From contig JAFRLH010000055.1 of the NCBI GenBank assembly GCA_017431345.1, forward strand, positions 58,229 to 122,228: DNA of 64,000 bases, in the 5' to 3' direction. The notes beneath the pieces were generated by a model, which saw only the letters and a program-made list of their open reading frames with translations, ran no database searches and was not told where the DNA came from. Both the position numbers and the translations under genes were made by a program. This stretch comes from Lachnospiraceae bacterium. GTDB lineage: Bacteria; Bacillota; Clostridia; Lachnospirales; Lachnospiraceae. Below, one piece after another: positions 13,271 to 22,667 of the stretch. Each line of letters begins with the position of its first letter. The first letter of the stretch is position 1.

Positions 13271-13717
13271 TCAGCCTTCGATCGCGATATATTTCTTCTG
13301 CTCAACTTCCTGCTGTTTCTCTTTCTTGGGAACCAGGATCGTCAGGATACCATCGGCGAATTTCGCCTTGATGTCTTCCTGGGTGATCTGCTCGCCCACA
13401 TAGAAGCTCCTGCTCATCGAACCGGAATATCTTTCCTTCCTCAGATACTTGCCTTCCTGATCCTTCTCATCCTTGTTCTCGGAATGGGAAGCTTCGATGG
13501 TAAGGGTACCGTCTTTAAGATCTGCCTTCACGTCTTCTTTGGTGAAGCCGGGCAGTTCCATCTCGATCTGGTAGTTATCCTCGGTTTCCTTAATATCGGT
13601 GTTCATCTGGGTCACCTGGGTGCGTCCGAAATGACGGGCCGGCCAGAAACTGTCGTTAAAGAATTCATCAAACAGGCTGTCTGTAAAATTATCATTGAAA
13701 ATGCTGGGTCTTAACAT
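13271..13717 (-). CDS. Hsp20/alpha-crystallin small heat-shock protein
   Basis: 148 aa with DIKETEDNYQIEMELPGFTKEDVKADLKDGTLTI...FADGILTILVPK. Confidence 0.9.
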   Translation of the reverse strand: MLRPSIFNDNFTDSLFDEFFNDSFWPARHFGRTQVTQMNTDIKETEDNYQIEMELPGFTKEDVKADLKDGTLTIEASHSENKDEKDQEGKYLRKERYSGSMSRSFYVGEQITQEDIKAKFADGILTILVPKKEKQQEVEQKKYIAIEG

Positions 13718-13840: not shown

Positions 13841-13959
13841 TGTCATCCTGAGCAAGCGAAGCGCGTCGAAGGATCTTCGCTCTGAAACAGGCGGCTTTAC
13901 TAAAACCGCAAGCATTACGCGGTGGATTCTTCCGTTGCTCTGCGCCTTCAGAATGACAG
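13841..13959 (+). repeat. 119-bp MITE/REP-like element with TGTCATYCTGA terminal inverted repeats (copy B)
   Basis: It starts TGTCATCCTGAGCAAGCGAAGCGCGTCGAAGGATCT and ends CTTCAGAATGACAG. It aligns along its whole length with the minus strand of 49234-49352. Confidence 0.6.
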
Positions 13960-13964
13960 ATGTT

Positions 13965-14303
13965 TTATTCGATCGTGATCCTCTTCTCCTCAGCTGCCTT
14001 CTCGTAAGCAATCTTCGGAATCGTCAGGATCAGGACACCGTCCTTATAAGCTGCTTTGACATCTTCAGTCTTGATGTCTCCGACATAGAAACGTCTCTGG
14101 CACTTGCCGGTATAGCGTTCTTTTCTGAGAGGCTTCATGGTCTCGTCATTCAGGAACTTGGCTTCTACGGTCAGATATTCTTTCTCAACGTACGCTGCGA
14201 TCTTTTCCTTGGCGCAGCCCGGGATGTCTACCTTCAGCACATAAGCCTCATTGTTTTCCAGAATATCGCATCTCATTAAATCATTTCTTCTTTCCATGAT
14301 CAT
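13965..14303 (-). CDS. Hsp20/alpha-crystallin small heat-shock protein
   Basis: M(I)MERRNDLMRCDILENNEAYVLKVDIPG...YKDGVLILTIPK. Start placed at ATG 14303 or 14297. The track ORF extends to 14399. Confidence 0.85.
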   Translation of the reverse strand: MIMERRNDLMRCDILENNEAYVLKVDIPGCAKEKIAAYVEKEYLTVEAKFLNDETMKPLRKERYTGKCQRRFYVGDIKTEDVKAAYKDGVLILTIPKIAYEKAAEEKRITIE

Positions 14304-14423: not shown

Positions 14424-14452
14424 GTTATAGCACTTCTGTTAGCACTCGTCAA
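14424..14452 (-). promoter_or_regulatory. Sigma-A type promoter of hsp20 overlapping CIRCE
   Basis: The minus strand has TTGACG (14452-14447), a 17-nt spacer, then TATAAC (14429-14424). The -35 lies in the CIRCE spacer. Confidence 0.55.
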
Positions 14453-14465
14453 GAGTGAGTGCTAA
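14439..14465. promoter_or_regulatory. CIRCE operator (HrcA binding site)
   Basis: TTAGCACTC-GTCAAGAGT-GAGTGCTAA is a perfect match to the TTAGCACTC-N9-GAGTGCTAA consensus. Confidence 0.85.
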
Positions 14466-14627
14466 CATTTTTTGTGAAATTTCCGTGAAGAAATGATTAA
14501 ATGACTTATTTTGCGGGTTCCGGTCTTCTTTCCATCGAAAATATACTGTACTGATCTGTGCAATATTCTTCTTATAGTTCGTTCTGCTGCCCAACGCAAG
14601 ACGCCGCCTGATAACCTCAGACGGCGT
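14449..14627. repeat. Non-coding module copy X1 plus hairpin H1
   Basis: tcaagagtgagtgctaacattttttgtgaaatttccgtgaa... is identical for ~41 nt to 16327 onward. It is homologous to 22024 onward, with an internal deletion. It ends in the hairpin AGACGCCGCCTGA-taacc-TCAGACGGCGT at 14599-14627. Confidence 0.8.
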
Positions 14628-14648: not shown

Positions 14649-15992
14649 TTATTTGAGTTTGGACATCAGAACAGATGCCATGTAGATTGGCAAAAATTTA
14701 ATCCCCTGTTCTTTATGCACATCTTTCTGGGATAGAACGATCGTTTCCTTTACAGACCCGGAATACTTTTTTCGAAAACAATCCAGCGACTCATGTTTTC
14801 CGGTTCCCGAAGCTTTCACCTCCAGCGCTGTGATCTTTGCTTTCTCTGTGATCAGGAAATCGACTTCATAGTAATGAGTGCTCCCTTCCTTTTCCCAGGT
14901 ATGATAGAACAATTCCCTTCCTGCGGCAGCAATCATCTGTGCTACCGCATTTTCATACAGATATCCAAGGTTTGCCGGAAGCTTGTCAGACAACAGTTTT
15001 GCGTAGATTTCATTTTCAGCCGCAGGGCGGTCGATAAACATAAGCGTTACAAACAGACCGGTATCCGCGATATACATTTTATAACTGCTCAGATCCTTCG
15101 TATCTGTCAATGTCACATGCGGATCCGTAGTATTATAAGAGATCAGAACCGTTTTGGAATCGATCAGATCATAAAGACGTTCTTCATCCCGTTCCGTTTT
15201 TTTCTTTTTGGTAGCACCGGAAAGCAGATATCGTTTCGTATCTTTGGATAGCTGCCCGGGAATTGAATGATACATCGCGGAAATTCTGCCGGAAGAATCG
15301 ATTTTTTTGAAATCCGCCTCGTATAATTCCAGAATAGACCTTTTCACCATATCGATCTCGGAGAAACTTTTCCCCTGCGTATAGGCCTCTACCGCCTGAG
15401 GCATACCGCCCACTGCCATATACAGCCTGAAATCACGCATCATCTGCCGGTTGATCTGCTGCTCCATACTCTTTCCGGACCGGTACAACTGCTCAATAAC
15501 TTCATAAGAATGCTTTCCGACTGCCAGAAGAAACTCCTCATAATCCATAGGATAAACCGGCAGTTTCATCTCCTCCGACGGAATCAGGATATTTTTTACA
15601 TTTCTCCGAATAGAAATCAGGGATCCGGTCTCGATATAATGATATCTGCCATCTTTCACCAGATATTTGATCGCCTGTCTCGCCGGCGGATACAGCTGAA
15701 TCTCATCGAATATGATCACGGATCTGTGTTGTACCAGCTGAACACCGGTGACTGCCTGCAGCCGCAGAAAAAACATGTCGATATCTGCAAGATCATCAAA
15801 ACATGACATAACCGTTTTTGAGGCAGAGGCAAAATCGATCAGAATATACGAATCATATTCATTTTTCGCAAAAGATTCCGCTATCGTTGACTTACCGACA
15901 CGTCTGGGGCCTTCCAGAAGAATGCTGTAGTGATCCGCATACTTCTCCTTCCATTCCAGAAGCCGGTCATAGGCTTTTCTCTTGAAAATCAT
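14649..15992 (-). CDS. AAA-type P-loop NTPase with a DUF4143-like / PD-(D/E)xK-like C-terminal domain
   Basis: 447 aa. Walker A is LLEGPRRVGKST and Walker B is VIIFDEIQ. The C-terminus is YEVDFLITEKAKITALEVKASG. A GGGAGGG RBS precedes it. Confidence 0.8.
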   Translation of the reverse strand: MIFKRKAYDRLLEWKEKYADHYSILLEGPRRVGKSTIAESFAKNEYDSYILIDFASASKTVMSCFDDLADIDMFFLRLQAVTGVQLVQHRSVIIFDEIQLYPPARQAIKYLVKDGRYHYIETGSLISIRRNVKNILIPSEEMKLPVYPMDYEEFLLAVGKHSYEVIEQLYRSGKSMEQQINRQMMRDFRLYMAVGGMPQAVEAYTQGKSFSEIDMVKRSILELYEADFKKIDSSGRISAMYHSIPGQLSKDTKRYLLSGATKKKKTERDEERLYDLIDSKTVLISYNTTDPHVTLTDTKDLSSYKMYIADTGLFVTLMFIDRPAAENEIYAKLLSDKLPANLGYLYENAVAQMIAAAGRELFYHTWEKEGSTHYYEVDFLITEKAKITALEVKASGTGKHESLDCFRKKYSGSVKETIVLSQKDVHKEQGIKFLPIYMASVLMSKLK

Positions 15993-16023
15993 ATTGTCCG
16001 CCCTCCCTATATGGCCAAATATA

Positions 16024-16103
16024 GCATTTCTTCAATTGTTTTTCAAGCGAAATATTCCGTTTCTTCAATTATTTATCGTCAAACAACTTCCGTTTCTTCA
16101 ATA
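16024..16103. repeat. Three direct 14-bp repeats phased at 33 bp upstream of NTPase-1
   Basis: The copies are gcaTTTCTTCAATT (16024), ccgTTTCTTCAATT (16057) and ccgTTTCTTCAATa (16090). Confidence 0.7.
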
Positions 16104-16177
16104 TTATCCGATTGCTTATGTACCATTGCCTAATACTATTCCGAGCCCGAAGATGGTCTCCTGTCAGAATATGCAAT

Positions 16178-16380
16178 CTGACCAATTTTTTGACCAATTT
16201 TGCCTAACACCAGACGCCGCCTGATGAGCTCAGACGGCGTCTTCCTTTACTGCATATTGTGTTTTTCTTTTCCGGACACCACTACATAAGCCATGACAGG
16301 GGCTGTTAAACCGACCGCAACCGTAATCAAGAGTGAGTGCTAACATTTTTTGTGAAATTTCCGTGAAAATTGATGTGCTG
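16178..16380. repeat. Non-coding module copy Y2 plus the start of X2
   Basis: It contains cTGACCAATTTTtTGACCAATTTTg. Hairpin H2 is AGACGCCGCCTGA-tgagc-TCAGACGGCGTCT at 16212-16242. A ~90-bp conserved stretch then ends in the right CIRCE half, tcAAGAGTGAGTGCTAAc. It is about 93% identical by eye to 21875-22040. Confidence 0.85.
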
Positions 16381-16450
16381 TCCTATCTATGGTAACCATT
16401 TTTATCAATACAGCGGCAGATCGGGTCCGCCAAACCAATGTTTCGGCTTT

Positions 16451-16618
16451 TGTGCAATTTTGATAGCATCCGGACATTTTTACTGTCTCTGTTTTTGCAA
16501 TAATCTCCTCTTTACGGAAAAATGCTGTCACGATCCGTGCAATAATGCTGCCTTTCAGGATTTTCTACTGTCCTCTTGACCTTGTTTTTCTCAACTCTCC
16601 GCGTAAAAAAGGACAGTA
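16451..16618. repeat. Iteron-like array: three 42/43-bp units (TGTGCAATAA...TACTGTC) plus an inverted TACTGTCC/GGACAGTA pair
   Basis: TGTGCAAT-like words are at 16451, 16494 and 16536. (T/A)(A/G)CTGTC words are at 16481, 16523 and 16566. GGACAGTA is at 16611. Confidence 0.7.
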
Positions 16619-16859
16619 TAATTCTATTTTCGCAGCCTGATTGCACAAAAACGATACATTTCACCTGTTATTGCCTCTCTCAGCCGCATTTTGGGGACAG
16701 CACAATTTCATATATGCCTGTTTTTTGCACCGCTTCCCGCCTGAAATTGAAATTACGCCGCCATCAACATGACGAGGCCGCGATCCGTTCAGTTGGATCA
16801 CCGCCGCTTTCTTCGTGATCATCAGTATTCTCGAAAGCCATCGCCAAAAACAGAGATTT

Positions 16860-18803
16860 TCAAGTATGAGAGCCATTCTTCCGCCCGCAGCATTTCTTAT
16901 ACTTTTTCCCGCTGCCGCAGGGACAGGGATCGTTGGGGTAGATTTTTCTTACACCGGCCTTCACTTCTCCGGCGAGGCCATTCGGCATGGCCATGATCGG
17001 AATCGAATCCGCCGTCATTTCATTATCGACCTCAAAACCCAGCTGCTTCAGCTCCCTGCTCCCATTTTCAAGCAGGTCTGCAGCATTGCTGCTCATCGGA
17101 ACGATCACCGGGCGCCTTCCGGGAGCGGATGCCGGCATTAAAGACAACATCTCGTTCGGCGTATGGCCTCTCAGTTCAAACATTCGCGTGTGGTTGTTCA
17201 GATCCATAATGATCTTCGCAAAGGATTCGATCTGTCCCTTTGCAGAGAACTCGATTCCTCGGGAATTCAGTTCTTCCATATAGTCAGAAAGCATTCCGCC
17301 GCCGGAGAACACCATAAATGCGTACCGGCAAAGTTCCTCACTCAATTCTGCTTCCAGCTTCAGGTCATTCTGAAGGAATCTGAACAGCTTCTTATACGAT
17401 GGATTCGAGGCCGGGTACCCGTTTGCCGGGAGTTCCCGGATTTCAGTTTCCCCGGGAAGATAGAACGCAACATCCCTTTGCCTGGCTTCGATCGCGAGAA
17501 AAATATCTCCTTCTGCCGCTTCATTGGCAACCAGTCTGTTCCCCATCACGCGGCATGGATTCAGTTTTTGCGGGATTCTCTGCAAGAGCTTCTGAAATCC
17601 CCCGTAATCAGTCTGACTGCCGTTTCTCTGTTTGTACATCCGGAACAGATGTTTTACCGGTCCTACAACAAATAAAGCCGAAAATGTCTGCAGGCACTGA
17701 ATCAGCCATCTCGCATCTGTATGATAAGCCCTGTATCCGTTTTTGCAGATCACTTCATAGACCGCAGCCACATCCCAGGGTACCTCCACCGTATCGTCGG
17801 AGTATTCCGCAAGATAGTTCAGCTCATAGATGCCTTCCAGATGATACCAGTCTTCGTCCGTCGGCCGGAAATGTTCTTTTTTGATTGCCGCCTCGAACGC
17901 ATCCAGATCCTCCTCCGGCAGTTCCAACAGCACACTTCGCATGACATCCGGCTCCAGCAGATGCCGGGCCAGTTCATAGGCAATTCTGGGTTTTTTCTGT
18001 GCCTTCAGATCACAGCCGGTCTCTTCCGCCGTTTCTATAAGAAGGTCCTTGGGATACGAATTCAACAGATCCAGCAGCGAACCTGTGCTCTGTTTCTCCT
18101 GTACACGTGTCGTGGCAGAGGTCTTCGGAACCGGAGACACCTTCTGTTGTTCCGTGGCAGCCTGCAAGAGAAGACGGCTTGCCTCAGTAAGCATTGCGCT
18201 CGTAGATTTCCCAAGCAGATTATTGCGGCTTTTGATTTCTTTACAAGTGCCGATTCCCTGCCCTTTCCGTACGCGGTTAAAGACTGCGGCAAAGGACGGA
18301 TATCCAGGTCCTTCCTCTTTCAGGAAACAGCTATCCTTCAAGATCTGATTGATTTCTGTTCCATCGCCCCAATATTCATCTTCTTTTACCGAAACTTCTT
18401 TCAGTATGACCGGATAAAAGAGCGAGCTTTTATCGCTTTCCTCAGTAAACCGGATATCATCTAATATTTTTTCGACTTCTACTCTATACTCCGGAGCACT
18501 ATCCTGTTCTTTCACGCGGAAAGTAAACCAGGTTTTATTCATAAGCCAGTCGTCGGCGCAGGAATCCTTTGCACTCCAACAGGAGTACTCATAACTGTAG
18601 GGAATTCTTCCCTTTCCCTGACTCTCGAAGATACGATCTTTTTCCTGAAAGAACTCAAACTCAAACCGGGCTGTCCGCGGCAGCTCCAGCATTACTTCCA
18701 GTATATATGCCAGTTGGGAAAAAGTAATATGCAGCGGAAGATACGCGCGTCGCCAACGGGGCGGTTTAATACCTTTTCTGATTGCTTTGATCTGAATGAA
18801 CAT
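16860..18803 (-). CDS. PRiA4_ORF3-like N-terminal domain protein with a C-terminal SEC-C metal-binding motif
   Basis: 647 aa. The N-terminus IQIKAIRKGIKPPRWRRAYLPLHITFSQLAYILEVML resembles the IKPPIWRR module of the plasmid pRiA4b ORF-3 family. The C-terminus is PNDPCPCGSGKKYKKCCG. Confidence 0.7.
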   Translation of the reverse strand: MFIQIKAIRKGIKPPRWRRAYLPLHITFSQLAYILEVMLELPRTARFEFEFFQEKDRIFESQGKGRIPYSYEYSCWSAKDSCADDWLMNKTWFTFRVKEQDSAPEYRVEVEKILDDIRFTEESDKSSLFYPVILKEVSVKEDEYWGDGTEINQILKDSCFLKEEGPGYPSFAAVFNRVRKGQGIGTCKEIKSRNNLLGKSTSAMLTEASRLLLQAATEQQKVSPVPKTSATTRVQEKQSTGSLLDLLNSYPKDLLIETAEETGCDLKAQKKPRIAYELARHLLEPDVMRSVLLELPEEDLDAFEAAIKKEHFRPTDEDWYHLEGIYELNYLAEYSDDTVEVPWDVAAVYEVICKNGYRAYHTDARWLIQCLQTFSALFVVGPVKHLFRMYKQRNGSQTDYGGFQKLLQRIPQKLNPCRVMGNRLVANEAAEGDIFLAIEARQRDVAFYLPGETEIRELPANGYPASNPSYKKLFRFLQNDLKLEAELSEELCRYAFMVFSGGGMLSDYMEELNSRGIEFSAKGQIESFAKIIMDLNNHTRMFELRGHTPNEMLSLMPASAPGRRPVIVPMSSNAADLLENGSRELKQLGFEVDNEMTADSIPIMAMPNGLAGEVKAGVRKIYPNDPCPCGSGKKYKKCCGRKNGSHT

Positions 18804-18953: not shown

Positions 18954-20300
18954 TCACTGCTTCCTTGCTCTGAGCCAGTCCCTTAACAGAAAGGTACAAT
19001 AATACGGAAAGGTATATATACTGTTCTCAATTCCCACATTATTCATGGATAGCTTTATTCCCCACTGAATATCAGCATACTTATCATTCCTGATCAGGGA
19101 TCTCAAAGACTGAGATCTGCCGCTTCGGGCTTTTACCTCCACCGGAATCAATCTTTCCGTATCTCTGACAAAGAAATCCTCCTCCAGCGTGCCATCCTCA
19201 CGCTTATAATAGTACAGCGAGTATCCTTGTTTATATAAGGCCTCCCCCACGATGTTCTCATATAGCGCTCCTTTATATACGCCAAGATTTTTATTGGCTC
19301 TCAGATCTTCCTGGGACTCGTCATCCAGCATAGCCGTCAGAATTCCCGTATCTGCCATGTACAGTTTGAATTTCAGATCGTCATAGTTTCCTTTTAACGG
19401 CAGTTCCGGAAAATTCAGACAGTAGCATTTTTTTACGATACCGGCATCCTGAAGCCAGTCTATACATCCGCCGTAATCATGAAATCTGGCACCTGAGGCC
19501 ACTTTTGAAATCTGAAATTTCTTGTTGTCCTTTGCCAGCTGAGCCGGTATTGCATCAAAGACCCTCGCAATACGTGTCTGATCCACGCCATCCGCATATT
19601 TCCTGATGTCGTCTCGGTAAGCAGTTATAATCTGTTTTTGAAGTTCATGGGTGCCTGAGAATGATTTCGTGTCATAATACCTCGCAACGACCTCCGGCAT
19701 GCCGCCAAGGATTGTGTAATCAATAAACAGCTGCATCAATGAATCCTGTATGGCACTGCCGAACGGCTTTCCTTCCAGCATATGAGACAGCAGATCCTGC
19801 TTCAGAGAGTCATCGTATCCTCTCGCCCACAAAAACTCCTCAAAATCCAGAGAATACATCTCATAGTCTGTTTTATACCCAACGCTGACACTCTCAATCT
19901 GTTTGTAGTTAATTCCAAGCAGAGAGCCGCTGCAGATGACATCAAAGCGATGATCAATGGCAAAGAACTTCAAGGATGTTGCAATGTCCGGGCAGGCCTG
20001 CATCTCGTCAAAGAACAGCAGAGTTCTGCCTGCTTCAAAATAGAATCCCGGTTCGATCCTTGTAATGTTTTTTATAATATCATCCGTATTATATCCGTTT
20101 TCAAGAATCGTTCTGAACTTCGGACTCTCGATGAAATTAATCTCGATAATGTTCTCATAGTGTGCTCCGGCAAATCTTCGGATGGATTCTGTTTTTCCGA
20201 TCTGCCGTGCTCCTTTTATGATTAATGGCTTTCTATCCTTGTCCCGGTACCAGTTTTCAAGATAATCATCAATTTTTCTTTTTAAATAGCTCATGTGCAC
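18954..20300 (-). CDS. AAA-type P-loop NTPase with a DUF4143-like / PD-(D/E)xK-like C-terminal domain (paralog of 14649-15992)
   Basis: 448 aa. Walker A is IIKGARQIGKTE and Walker B is LLFFDEMQ. The C-terminus is EEDFFVRDTERLIPVEVKARSG. Confidence 0.8.
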   Translation of the reverse strand: MHMSYLKRKIDDYLENWYRDKDRKPLIIKGARQIGKTESIRRFAGAHYENIIEINFIESPKFRTILENGYNTDDIIKNITRIEPGFYFEAGRTLLFFDEMQACPDIATSLKFFAIDHRFDVICSGSLLGINYKQIESVSVGYKTDYEMYSLDFEEFLWARGYDDSLKQDLLSHMLEGKPFGSAIQDSLMQLFIDYTILGGMPEVVARYYDTKSFSGTHELQKQIITAYRDDIRKYADGVDQTRIARVFDAIPAQLAKDNKKFQISKVASGARFHDYGGCIDWLQDAGIVKKCYCLNFPELPLKGNYDDLKFKLYMADTGILTAMLDDESQEDLRANKNLGVYKGALYENIVGEALYKQGYSLYYYKREDGTLEEDFFVRDTERLIPVEVKARSGRSQSLRSLIRNDKYADIQWGIKLSMNNVGIENSIYTFPYYCTFLLRDWLRARKQ

Positions 20301-20530
20301 ACCTGTCTTTCTGTTTTATATAGTATAATATTGATCTGAGCCACATCTGTCAATATTTTCAGAGCCATTTGCGTCTGCTTTCTTTTATTTTTAGAGCCAT
20401 TTATTGTCTTTTGGATACAATTTTTAGATAAAGCCCTCACATATTTCCTTATAAGCGTCAAGACAAGAAGCAAATATTTGTTCGCCTGACTGTCAGGAAT
20501 TACATACAGCATTCAACTATGCCCATCTAT

Positions 20531-20660
20531 CTGACCATTTTTTTGACCAGTTTCCCGTAAACCCAGACGCCGCCTGATACCTTCAGACGGCGTCTCCTAT
20601 TACTGTATATTGTTATCCTACACTCCGGATACCTGTGCATAAGGCATTACAGGCTCCATC
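20531..20660. repeat. Diverged non-coding module copy Y'
   Basis: It contains cTGACCATTTTTtTGACCAGTTTCc and hairpin H3, AGACGCCGCCTGA-tacct-TCAGACGGCGTCT, at 20565-20595. Homology to Y2/Y3 decays after that point. Confidence 0.7.
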
Positions 20661-20723: not shown

Positions 20724-21734
20724 CTACTCCCCAGCTGTCACCCTTAACAAGTCCTTTTTGATCAGCCTTTTCCGATATGGACTGAATTCATCTTTGCTCA
20801 GATGAAGAATCTCTCTCACTTCCGCTGTTCTGTGGCTCTGCGCCTTCGCTATTCCATAAGCAACAAACCGGTCTTTCTGCGACAGCCGTTCCCAGATAAT
20901 ATCATAGGCATAATCATGTAATCTGACTTTCCACTCCTTCCGCACCGCTTCTGTATACCGGCATTGATTTTTCCAGGTAAAATAACCAATCAGCTGAAAT
21001 GCGTAAGGATATCCTTTTGTTTCCCGGACCATATCCAGTGCAGTATCCGGATCCATTCCCAGTGTCTCTTTATAGTCATTCTGAATCTGCTGAATCTGTA
21101 AAGGCTCCATAATCAGTTTTGGTGCCCTATACAGAAAAGTAAGATTCTTTACATTTTGCAATTCTTCTATATTTTCAGACAGACCAGTCATCAGCAAAAA
21201 TACCGGAAGATCATCCCGGATGTATAATTGAAACGCACTTGCAAATGCCACCATTTCCTTTGATTTTATAATCTCATCGATCGCAATTAATACCCGTTTA
21301 TTCTGACGTTTGAGACTTTCGAGCATTTTTTTCAACGCGATTTCCGGATTGCTGATTTTGGGTGCTCCGGATACTTCCAGGCCCACTCCGAAAAATGACA
21401 GGTTGATACTGGCATTCTGAAAGACCCTGGCCAATGTTTTTTCTGCCGCCAGTGCAGAAATGGTTTTATCCAGTATATCGCCGCCTGAACTGATGCTGAC
21501 GACAATCCAGTCTTCCTGTTGTTTAAAATATGCCGTTGCGTCAGTTAAGAAAACTGTTTTCCCTGATCTCCGCACACCGGTTATCATGTAGATCTGGATC
21601 ATCGGTTCTGGCACTGTAAAATCATCCGTAACCTGTCGCAACAGTTTCTCCCGCCGAATATTACGGATCGGCTCCTTCCCAAACATAATAGAATATGGAT
21701 TCAGTTTCATTGCCTGCGATCTTCCTTTTTCCAT
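20724..21734 (-). CDS. P-loop NTPase (Arch_ATPase/ORC-Cdc6-like) with a wHTH-like C-terminus
   Basis: 336 aa. Walker A is ITGVRRSGKTV and Walker B is LIAIDEII. The likely start is MKLNPYSIMFG at 21710. Confidence 0.7.
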   Translation of the reverse strand: MEKGRSQAMKLNPYSIMFGKEPIRNIRREKLLRQVTDDFTVPEPMIQIYMITGVRRSGKTVFLTDATAYFKQQEDWIVVSISSGGDILDKTISALAAEKTLARVFQNASINLSFFGVGLEVSGAPKISNPEIALKKMLESLKRQNKRVLIAIDEIIKSKEMVAFASAFQLYIRDDLPVFLLMTGLSENIEELQNVKNLTFLYRAPKLIMEPLQIQQIQNDYKETLGMDPDTALDMVRETKGYPYAFQLIGYFTWKNQCRYTEAVRKEWKVRLHDYAYDIIWERLSQKDRFVAYGIAKAQSHRTAEVREILHLSKDEFSPYRKRLIKKDLLRVTAGE

Positions 21735-21874
21735 ACTGATAAAGTCCTTTCCCAGTCCAACGAATAATGACTGCTGTTTTACTCTTTCTAATTATTTTAC
21801 TCTTTTTACTCTTTTATTTTTTATTCCATTGTTTTAGCCAGATCAAGATATTTATGTCCGGAAAAGCCATAACT

Positions 21875-22080
21875 TTGACCAATTTTCTGACCAATTTTGC
21901 TTAACACCAGACGCCGCCTGATAACCTCAGACGGCGTCTTCCTTTACTGCATATTGTGTTTTTTTCTTCCGGATACCACTACATAAGCCATGACAGGGGC
22001 TGTTAAACCGACCGCAACCGTAATCAAGAGTGGGTGCTGACTTTTTTTGGTAACTTTTCGTGAGAAGTTGATGAAGTGAC
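21875..22080. repeat. Non-coding module copy Y3 plus the start of X3
   Basis: It contains tTGACCAATTTTcTGACCAATTTTg and hairpin H4 at 21909-21939. A conserved stretch follows, ending tcAAGAGTGgGTGCTgAc at 22024-22041. Confidence 0.85.
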
Positions 22081-22158
22081 TTATTTCTGCGTGTTTCGCT
22101 CTTCTTTCCATATACATTTCCGGGCAGCCAGCCGCCAATCTGCTTTTCCGGCTTCGTT

Positions 22159-22327
22159 TGTGCAATAAATGATGTTCTATAAAATTATACTGTCCCGGAT
22201 TGTGCAATAACCGCTTTCCATTGAAAAAATACTGTACTGATCTGTGCAATAATCTTCTTATAAAATGTTTATACTGTCCTAATTTCACTGACAGATGACA
22301 CAAGCCAGTGCAAATCAGGACAGTATA
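22159..22327. repeat. Iteron-like array: three exact-phase 42-bp units, followed by a 21-bp-arm inverted repeat
   Basis: TGTGCAATAA is at 22159, 22201 and 22243. ATACTGT(C/A)C is at 22187, 22229 and 22271. The inverted repeat is tatactgtcctaatttcactg (22270-22290) against cagtgcaaatcaggacagtata (22306-22327). Confidence 0.8.
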
Positions 22328-22667
22328 TTTTGTTTTTTGACTTCGAATTGCACACCGAACAGGAATACTATGCTTTTCTGCCGCCGTCATACGCTGTTTA
22401 ATGACAGTACACTTATTCAAAAACCTATAATTTTGCACTCTATTGGCATGACATGATAAAAAAACACCGCCTGATACGGAATGATGCAGCAGGGGACGTT
22501 ATTTCAGTCTTTTATTGTCATAATTTGCATAAAACCGGCAAATATTTGTTGAATTCTATTGTGATATTGATATTATATTAAATAAAGAATTATGAATCTG
22601 ACGGAGAAGGGATCTTCTCCCTGCTCCGTCTTCCGGCACCATCACGAAAGGGGGCGGCTGACAGGTA

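Follow-up and report, generated by a model that had tools for sequence, protein, structure and literature searches.

A conserved CIRCE operator of hsp20 genes and its half-site copies at module junctions in a strain-variable ATPase island of a rumen Lachnospiraceae bacterium

The window analyzed here is the whole 64,000-nt stretch of the Lachnospiraceae bacterium assembly GCA_017431345.1 (contig JAFRLH010000055.1, positions 58,229-122,228 of the forward strand), and genome-wide scans covered the 3.27-Mb genome to which it belongs. It contains an island in which every gene lies on the minus strand, in the order hsp20b, hsp20a, CIRCE, ATPase1, SEC-C protein, ATPase2 and ATPase3, followed by a divergent esterase operon:

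13271-13717, minus strand: hsp20b, small heat-shock protein of 148 aa (Pfam HSP20, E 1e-23)
13965-14300, minus strand: hsp20a, small heat-shock protein (Pfam HSP20, E 4e-17)
14649-15992, minus strand: ATPase1, with AAA_14 and DUF4143 domains (Pfam; PADLOC PDC-S01, E 1e-95, full length)
16860-18803, minus strand: 647-aa protein with a SEC-C motif and a weak PRiA4_ORF3 match (Pfam)
18954-20300, minus strand: ATPase2, with AAA_14 and DUF4143 domains (PADLOC PDC-S01, E 5e-158, full length)
20724-21734, minus strand: ATPase3, P-loop protein with an ATPase_2/AAA_14-like N-terminus (domain search and comparison)
from 22668, plus strand: esterase operon, divergent from the island genes

The best NCBIfam match of hsp20b was Hsp18_Clos, with a score under the family cut-off, and the start of hsp20a is ambiguous (14300 or 14294; 103-144 aa in metagenome gene calls). 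The spacer between the two genes (window 13841-13959) carries ~90-120 nt of a dispersed repeat, with many 73-97% matches over contigs of the same genome and of the congeners G002 and G004. ATPase1 and ATPase2 share 28% identity, and their profile matches point to both being PADLOC PDC-S01 candidate defence proteins. Kinship of ATPase3 to either of them is confined to the P-loop, which is also the only part of it that matched the PDC-S01 HMM (E 2e-4). Relaxed selection on the SEC-C gene is suggested by several metagenomic strains (L074/L083, which are ENA scaffold_4015, L078 and L086), in which it is broken up into 2-3 ORFs or reduced to 610 aa by a ~60-nt deletion. An Rfam search of the window returned only a T-box and a SAM riboswitch, both away from the locus.

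Upstream of the hsp20 genes, a complete CIRCE overlaps their promoter:

14439-14465: complete CIRCE (HrcA operator), TTAGCACTC-N9-GAGTGCTAA, 0 mismatches in the pattern scan
14452-14447, minus strand: -35 box TTGACG of the hsp20 promoter, inside the CIRCE spacer region
14429-14424, minus strand: predicted -10 box TATAAC of the hsp20 promoter, assigned from conservation

The arms (14439-14447 and 14457-14465) enclose the spacer (14448-14456), and the element reads TTAGCACTC/GTCAAGAGT/GAGTGCTAA. A distance of 139-145 nt separates it from the hsp20a start downstream, and it overlaps the conserved -35/-10 pair, in which TTGACG and TATAAC are 17 nt apart; the operon downstream consists of the two minus-strand hsp20 genes. 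The CIRCE pattern occurred at five sites in the 3.27-Mb genome, compared to none for a reversed control pattern, and the remaining sites precede htpG, hrcA-grpE-dnaK, groESL and a lon-like gene. The genome also encodes hrcA (PF01628, E 8e-67, contig C62), with a CIRCE in front, and HrcA is predicted to bind at the hsp20 CIRCE. Because the spacer holds the promoter's -35, HrcA bound to the hsp20a-hsp20b operator would directly occlude RNA polymerase. The spacers of the other genomic CIRCEs differ in sequence from that of hsp20, and unlike the hsp20 element, the CIRCE of htpG is placed after the -10. On the plus strand, the CIRCE hairpin followed by TTTTTT (14437-14476) scores as an intrinsic terminator for antisense transcription.

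This layout is conserved within the genus. A CIRCE with a spacer-embedded -35 was kept in eight hsp20 upstream regions of six congeneric species (two units each in G001 and G010, and one each in G002, G005, G006 and G008), which have in common the string [TTCACAAAAAnTTCACAAAAAATG]-TTAGCACTC-nCnCTTGAC-GAGTGCTAA-N8-TATAA(C/T). The promoter consensus in these relatives is TTGAC(G/A)-17-TATAA(C/T), with a constant 17-nt distance to the -10, and the conserved spacer together with this fixed distance argues well, on comparative grounds, for a -35 within the spacer. The two complete CIRCE-hsp20 units of G001 (L031, G001:C51, positions 1862 and 5138) are 3.3 kb apart in the same orientation, the second complete unit of G010 lies on another contig (L102, G010:C64), and both second units share the spacer-embedded promoter architecture. 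In the window itself, positions 14468-14523 are orthologous to G002 C4:1-57.

Since the layout is conserved in eight upstream regions of six species, the full operator is ancestral, and the comparison identifies the complete CIRCE at 14439-14465 as the ancestral HrcA operator of the hsp20a-hsp20b operon. An 'empty' or pre-junction allele did not turn up in searches of 10 other genus genomes, 200 family genomes and metagenome look-ups. The rumen genus thus keeps an HrcA-type operator whose spacer also serves as the -35 of a small-HSP promoter.

From the T at 14449 onward, the operator region is repeated within the island. We refer to this 41-nt repeat as H (TCAAGAGTGAGTGCTAACATTTTTTGTGAAATTTCCGTGAA); on the gene strand its conserved upstream box reads TTCACnnnnnTTCACAAAAAATG. 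The left CIRCE arm and H are contiguous in all relatives compared, and homology between species ends ~33 nt past the right CIRCE arm, indicating that H corresponds exactly to the distal part of the conserved control region. In the extra full copies H is joined to a different left neighbor, X, and the resulting ~200-nt module reads, on the plus strand, a tail (TGACCAATTTT(T/C)TGACCAATTTTGC), a hairpin T, an 86-nt segment Xr, the junction and H. These repeats and the sequences beside them, including further hsp20-upstream sequence (Pext) and 42-nt E units, are as follows:

14449-14489: H copy A (native), 8 nt of spacer, the right CIRCE arm and the 24-nt conserved upstream box (repeat family D5)
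14490-14576: Pext(A), more hsp20-upstream sequence and one 42-nt E unit (repeats D6 and D8, 85-94%)
14588-14627, minus strand: T(A), terminator-like hairpin, T alone, 21 nt after the ATPase1 stop codon (repeat D4)
16170-16367: module B (full), tail (TGACCAATTTT twice) 16170-16200, T 16201-16240, Xr 16241-16326, H 16327-16367 (repeats D2-D5)
16451-16730: E(B), array with a 42-nt period, TACTGTnn-N6-TGTGCAATAAT, then inverted copies
20523-20653: module C (partial), tail, T and partial Xr (repeat D2)
21867-22064: module D (full), tail, T 21898-21937, Xr, junction and degenerate half-CIRCE H' 22024-22064 (repeats D3 and D5)
22065-22440: Pext' and E', diverged hsp20-upstream paralogue with three 42-nt units and an inverted section, ahead of the esterase operon (22668, plus strand)

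The H sequence at 14449-14489 matched 16327-16367 at 41/41 positions and 22024-22064 at 33/41 (80%), and an exact repeat of 41 nt is much longer than chance would produce. To the left of both extra copies stands ...ACCGACCGCAACCGTAA, so that ...CCGCAACCGTAA stands where the left arm would be. The sequence statements of the initial annotation all hold, as does its point that only the hsp20-proximal copy is a complete palindrome: the other copies have the right arm only, and in H' of module D that arm is changed to GGGTGCTGA. The break (14448/14449) falls one base into the spacer, at the base of the loop of the 9-bp-arm palindrome, and divides the -35 as TTGA/CG on the minus strand, a split that had also been claimed and that is borne out by conservation of the promoter consensus in the eight regions.

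Module C is without H and without the last 26 nt of Xr and is ~81% identical to modules B and D, whose X segments are 92.9% identical to each other. To the right of H, Pext(A) is paralogous to 22065-22262, and for more than 200 nt H'-Pext' as a whole can be aligned to H-Pext(A) as an old paralogue (~80%). In whole-genome BLAST and mismatch-tolerant pattern scans, H, the hairpin and the TGACCAATTTT tail were confined to this locus, which rejects the reading of these sequences as a genome-wide intergenic repeat, the finding that the initial annotation had named as weakening its own reading.

Several smaller repeats and one ORF accompany the modules. The E arrays (16451-16730 and 22150-22440) have a 42-43-nt period with inverted copies that read GGACAGTA...ATTGCACA; an unrelated gene of the same genome has a comparable third array in front of it (C49:~16100-16450), and one E unit persists beside hsp20 at 14540-14566. 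They could be operators, iterons or MITE-like elements, and Tn7-like ends were considered as well. Short direct repeats occur just upstream of each ATPase gene (16014-16079, 20330-20400 and 21775-21815), a separate set for each, with two 33-nt units at ATPase1 and TTTTAGAGCCATTT-type repeats at ATPase2. A 164-aa ORF (21944-22438, minus strand), annotated as a gene on metagenome contigs, spans Xr, H' and the E' array, and is open only through a TTAGCAC-to-TCAGCAC change in the arm of copy D, where copy B has a stop; it is probably spurious.

The hairpin T has a perfect 13-bp stem and a 5-nt loop on the minus (gene) strand only, as a G.U pair there becomes a C.A mismatch on the plus strand. Its folding energy is ~-27 kcal/mol (z = -5 to -6), the loop varies among copies, and the four copies bound ATPase1, SEC-C plus ATPase2, and ATPase3. 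We infer that T is an intrinsic-type terminator of the minus-strand genes, with a weak U-tail. T(A), at -24 kcal/mol on the minus strand, is orthologous to the hairpin at the corresponding place in G002 (83% match to G002 C4:201-253).

Xr is open in one minus-strand frame that ends in ...LLITVAVGLTAPVMAYVVVSGKEKHNMQ and a stop codon 6 nt before T, and the predicted C-terminus is hydrophobic. Together with an analogy to G002, this suggests that Xr is the C-terminus of a lost gene. The hsp20 upstream region of G002 runs, over a 55-nt contig overlap, into the orthologous T, which there terminates a different gene encoding a 749-aa secreted protein, and a second copy of tail, hairpin T and the last 39 codons of this gene lies ~6.5 kb further (267 nt, 93% identical). 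By analogy, this duplicate supports the gene-remnant reading of Xr and would be a scar of like kind in a sister species. Searches of 200 family genomes for a donor of X gave only chance matches (E above 1e-3). An ATPase1-like 3' end as the source of Xr was dropped, since the local alignment was no better than shuffles (25-57 of 500 reached its score).

Metagenome assemblies showed that strains are polymorphic at the modules. Contigs with an identical hsp20b protein are collinear with the window at 99.9-100%, and several of them end within H or X, in keeping with the repeats there. When hsp20b, ATPase2, ATPase3 and the esterase were looked up by exact match, the contexts were window-like with two exceptions, a strain variant and a tandem duplication, both of which are known from metagenome assemblies. 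The variant (L054, ENA ERZ28019011) is 99.9% identical up to 20401 and divergent beyond, with a full module upstream of ATPase2 (junction CCGCAACCGTAA/TCAAGAGTGAGTGCTAA), then a G002-like hsp20-upstream stretch and, in place of ATPase3 and the esterase, a SASA-domain gene absent from the genome of the window. The variant strain also carries an IS200/IS605-type Y1 transposase gene (L072, ENA ERZ28019011 k141_752711, positions 113-529) on the upstream side of ATPase2, ~5.5 kb away and past the rhamnosidase and SASA genes that this strain has instead of ATPase3 and the esterase.

The three known junction copies (B, D and the L054 module, V) read CCGCAACCGTAA/TCAAGAGTG and stand upstream of three unrelated genes. 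To the left of the junction, X is 92.9% identical between B and D and 89% between either and V; to the right, the homology consists of H plus diverged Pext, with H of copy A matching B at 41, D at 33 and V at 34 of 41 positions (73-100% among copies). Homology on both sides of the break indicates that one illegitimate junction was copied rather than several insertions occurring independently, and on this sequence evidence the three junctions are identical by descent.

The copies are also mosaic. H(B) equals H(A) at 41/41 positions, whereas the difference is 7% between X(B) and X(D) and 20% between H(D) and H(A); H(B) has the lineage-specific ATTTCC of copy A, where G002, G006 and L054 keep GTTTTT. 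The simplest reading of these differences would be an old junction and, more recently, conversion of B by A over a tract that stops where the homology ends. The tandem duplication, on ENA scaffold_4015 (ERZ28653819), repeats ATPase3-ATPase2-SEC-C twice with a ~5.7-kb period, equal to the B-D spacing of 5697 nt, and its hybrid module has all D-specific bases in X and all B-specific bases in H. A D-type X joined to a B-type H places the exchange inside the 58-nt run identical between B and D (16278-16335), which spans the junction, and this pattern matches the prediction of unequal homologous crossing-over, although short-read assembly with a k-mer below 58, if that was the method used, could have created the duplication artificially.

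Taken together, we consider it fairly probable that the island descends from an ancestral operator through a single break, with subsequent spread of the module by homologous recombination or conversion and with half-CIRCEs that are inert. Once in the lineage, illegitimate recombination (a deletion or duplication end-point) would have broken an hsp20-type control region inside the CIRCE spacer, fusing its distal part (the half-CIRCE, the upstream box and further upstream sequence) to X, which would derive from the 3' flank of a different gene and comprise the final ~25 codons of that gene, the terminator hairpin T and the TGACCAATTTT-repeat tail. The ~200-nt X/H module would then have spread within the locus via homologous recombination, unequal crossing-over and gene conversion, to reach its present places ahead of ATPase1 and ATPase3 in this genome and ahead of ATPase2 in the strain variant. 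As inert scars, the half-CIRCE copies would have one present activity, as portable homology for duplication, deletion and exchange of cassettes. One break in a palindrome would thus have produced recognizable half-operator scars that now mark cassette borders in a strain-variable island of candidate defence ATPases.

The founding event presumably was either a deletion from the spacer of a second hsp20 unit or the novel joint of a tandem duplication, both of which fit. Against the one-junction model as a whole, three unrelated genes behind one module fit an active cassette mechanism equally well, and the exact 41-nt identity of H(B) and H(A), ending at the edge of the conserved region, could reflect selection for a shared binding factor. 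In addition, the genomes searched contained no allele from before the junction from which the founding event could be rebuilt.

A possible, though somewhat less likely, version of the one-junction model specifies an ancestor with two tandem CIRCE-hsp20 units, in which a deletion removed the second hsp20 gene, running from the distal CIRCE spacer into the 3' end of the downstream gene and fusing H'-Pext'-E' to Xr. The second complete units of G001 and G010 and the old paralogy of H'-Pext' with H-Pext(A) are in its favor, but the island holds no trace of a third hsp20 gene, and modules B and L054 would still require later copying.

It is considerably less probable that the modules mark repeated entry of cassettes at one exact position, one of two origins offered by the initial annotation. 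Under a Campbell-type or site-specific scheme, circular cassettes with an attP-like X/H would enter the hsp20 CIRCE spacer and box (attB = CL/H) with the help of a recombinase encoded elsewhere, each entry restoring the CIRCE beside hsp20 and leaving X/H behind the cassette. The topology fits (CL/H-cassette-X/H-cassette-X/H'-original flank), the same module stands in front of each of three unrelated ATPase genes, strain variants differ at or near modules, and G000 and G002 differ in the genes between conserved T hairpins while the hsp20-adjacent T is orthologous in both. However, gene and domain annotation found no recombinase gene within window positions 3271-40177, the nearest candidate being the Y1 transposase of the variant strain only. 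X/H was also absent elsewhere in the same genome, in 10 other genus genomes, in 200 family genomes and in JGI metagenomes, where the two matches to the junction 19-mer had no other similarity to the window and are chance.

The form of the junctions likewise speaks against site-specific entry. The homology right of the junction is diverged and runs for 70-240 nt, which does not resemble a short conserved core; module C has no H; and scaffold_4015 has its crossover in the longest identical run, where a homologous exchange, and not a site-specific one, would be expected to fall. With junctions that are homologous on both sides (X 89-93%, H 73-100%) and an hsp20 operon that retains its intact operator, we regard repeated insertion as poorly compatible with the locus.

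The other proposed origin, that the control region was copied to drive the NTPase genes, is unlikely. The extra H copies have no left arm and no -10, and their -35 is short of its final 2 nt; the best hexamers past the junction, read from the sequence, are TTGATT-17-AACAGC. A T hairpin stands between each H copy and the next ATPase gene, and promoter-like sites matching 10-11 of 12 positions lie near ATPase1 (16046-16018) and ATPase2 (20353-20325). A promoter scan inside the modules found no match of at least 9 of 12, and the best promoter-like sites lay outside them. H' of module D (33/41) and H'' of the variant (34/41) are degenerate, with the CIRCE arm and the box both mutated. HrcA functions as a dimer on the full inverted repeat, and the half sites are probably inert.

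Functional co-option could still be imagined if the distal control region had been copied to bind an activator, an OmpR-type response regulator or an UP-element-reading RNA polymerase, and we give this little credence. Stress-linked control of the ATPase cassettes, or a decoy for HrcA, would be the consequence and is similarly improbable. The 41/41 identity of H(B) and H(A) stops exactly at the edge conserved across species, which favors co-option, and the conserved box is a TTCAC(A) direct repeat ~10-11 nt apart followed by an A-tract, resembling a protein-binding site or UP element. Against it stand the degenerate arm and box of H' and H'', the lack of a -10 after the junction, the -27 kcal/mol hairpin before every ATPase gene, the promoter-like sites that ATPase1 and ATPase2 have of their own, and the action of HrcA as a dimer on both arms. 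For annotators, a half-CIRCE of this kind should not be taken as evidence of heat-shock control.

Compared to known systems, the operator itself belongs with the CIRCE/HrcA class I heat-shock operators, with which it shares a perfect inverted repeat upstream of a chaperone gene and the presence of hrcA, and from which it differs in having the -35 hexamer within the 9-nt spacer. By its sequence it is an ordinary CIRCE with an unusual but conserved -35 overlap, whereas the extra copies at 16327 and 22024 are half sites and hence no CIRCE elements. HrcA control of small-HSP genes is known in lactobacilli, for example for hsp3 of Lactobacillus plantarum (PMC6503756).

The position of the break, one base inside the loop of a 9-bp-arm palindrome, is like that of palindrome-associated recombination end-points, and illegitimate recombination ending at palindromes and hairpins is general bacterial genetics. 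Homology among the T copies likewise starts at the stem base in copy A. Hairpin-associated illegitimate recombination is thus a reasonable cause of the junction, which is a single historical event.

Integron attC/CALIN arrays are similar in that single-gene cassettes are parted by similar structured repeats, and in three of the four copies the hairpin is followed by the words GTTAGGC, GTTAAGC and GTTGGGC (read from the sequence). We rejected an integron reading, as there is no integrase gene within window positions 3271-40177 and no attC architecture: the perfect 13-bp stem has neither extrahelical bases nor paired R''/L'' boxes, there is no inverse core RYYYAAC, and the cassettes have promoter-like sites of their own.

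In arrangement and probable action, the module array most resembles the PeSL cassettes of T4-type phages, in which terminator-containing modules mediate shuffling (PMC2839356, PMC4122927). In both, short conserved modules with a known or predicted terminator stem-loop flank single unrelated genes, which are non-essential in the PeSL case, and inter-module recombination in PeSL arrays yields duplications, deletions and replacements comparable to the apparent 5.7-kb duplication and the strain variant described here. In contrast to PeSL, the present modules lie on a bacterial chromosome in only four copies at one locus, have no evident strong conserved promoter and consist in part of a captured half operator, and no mini-circles were seen. 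A bolder version, which we hold to be rather improbable, would make them a chromosomal, recombinase-independent counterpart of PeSL cassettes, that is, portable homology blocks in a rumen bacterium. Just as improbably, these would swap, amplify and delete single-gene PDC-S01 cassettes beside hsp20, possibly via excised circles, with the CIRCE palindrome as the fragile seed. The modules would represent a new mechanism only if they prove to drive cassette exchange actively, and it is the PeSL cassettes that offer the closest known model for how they work.
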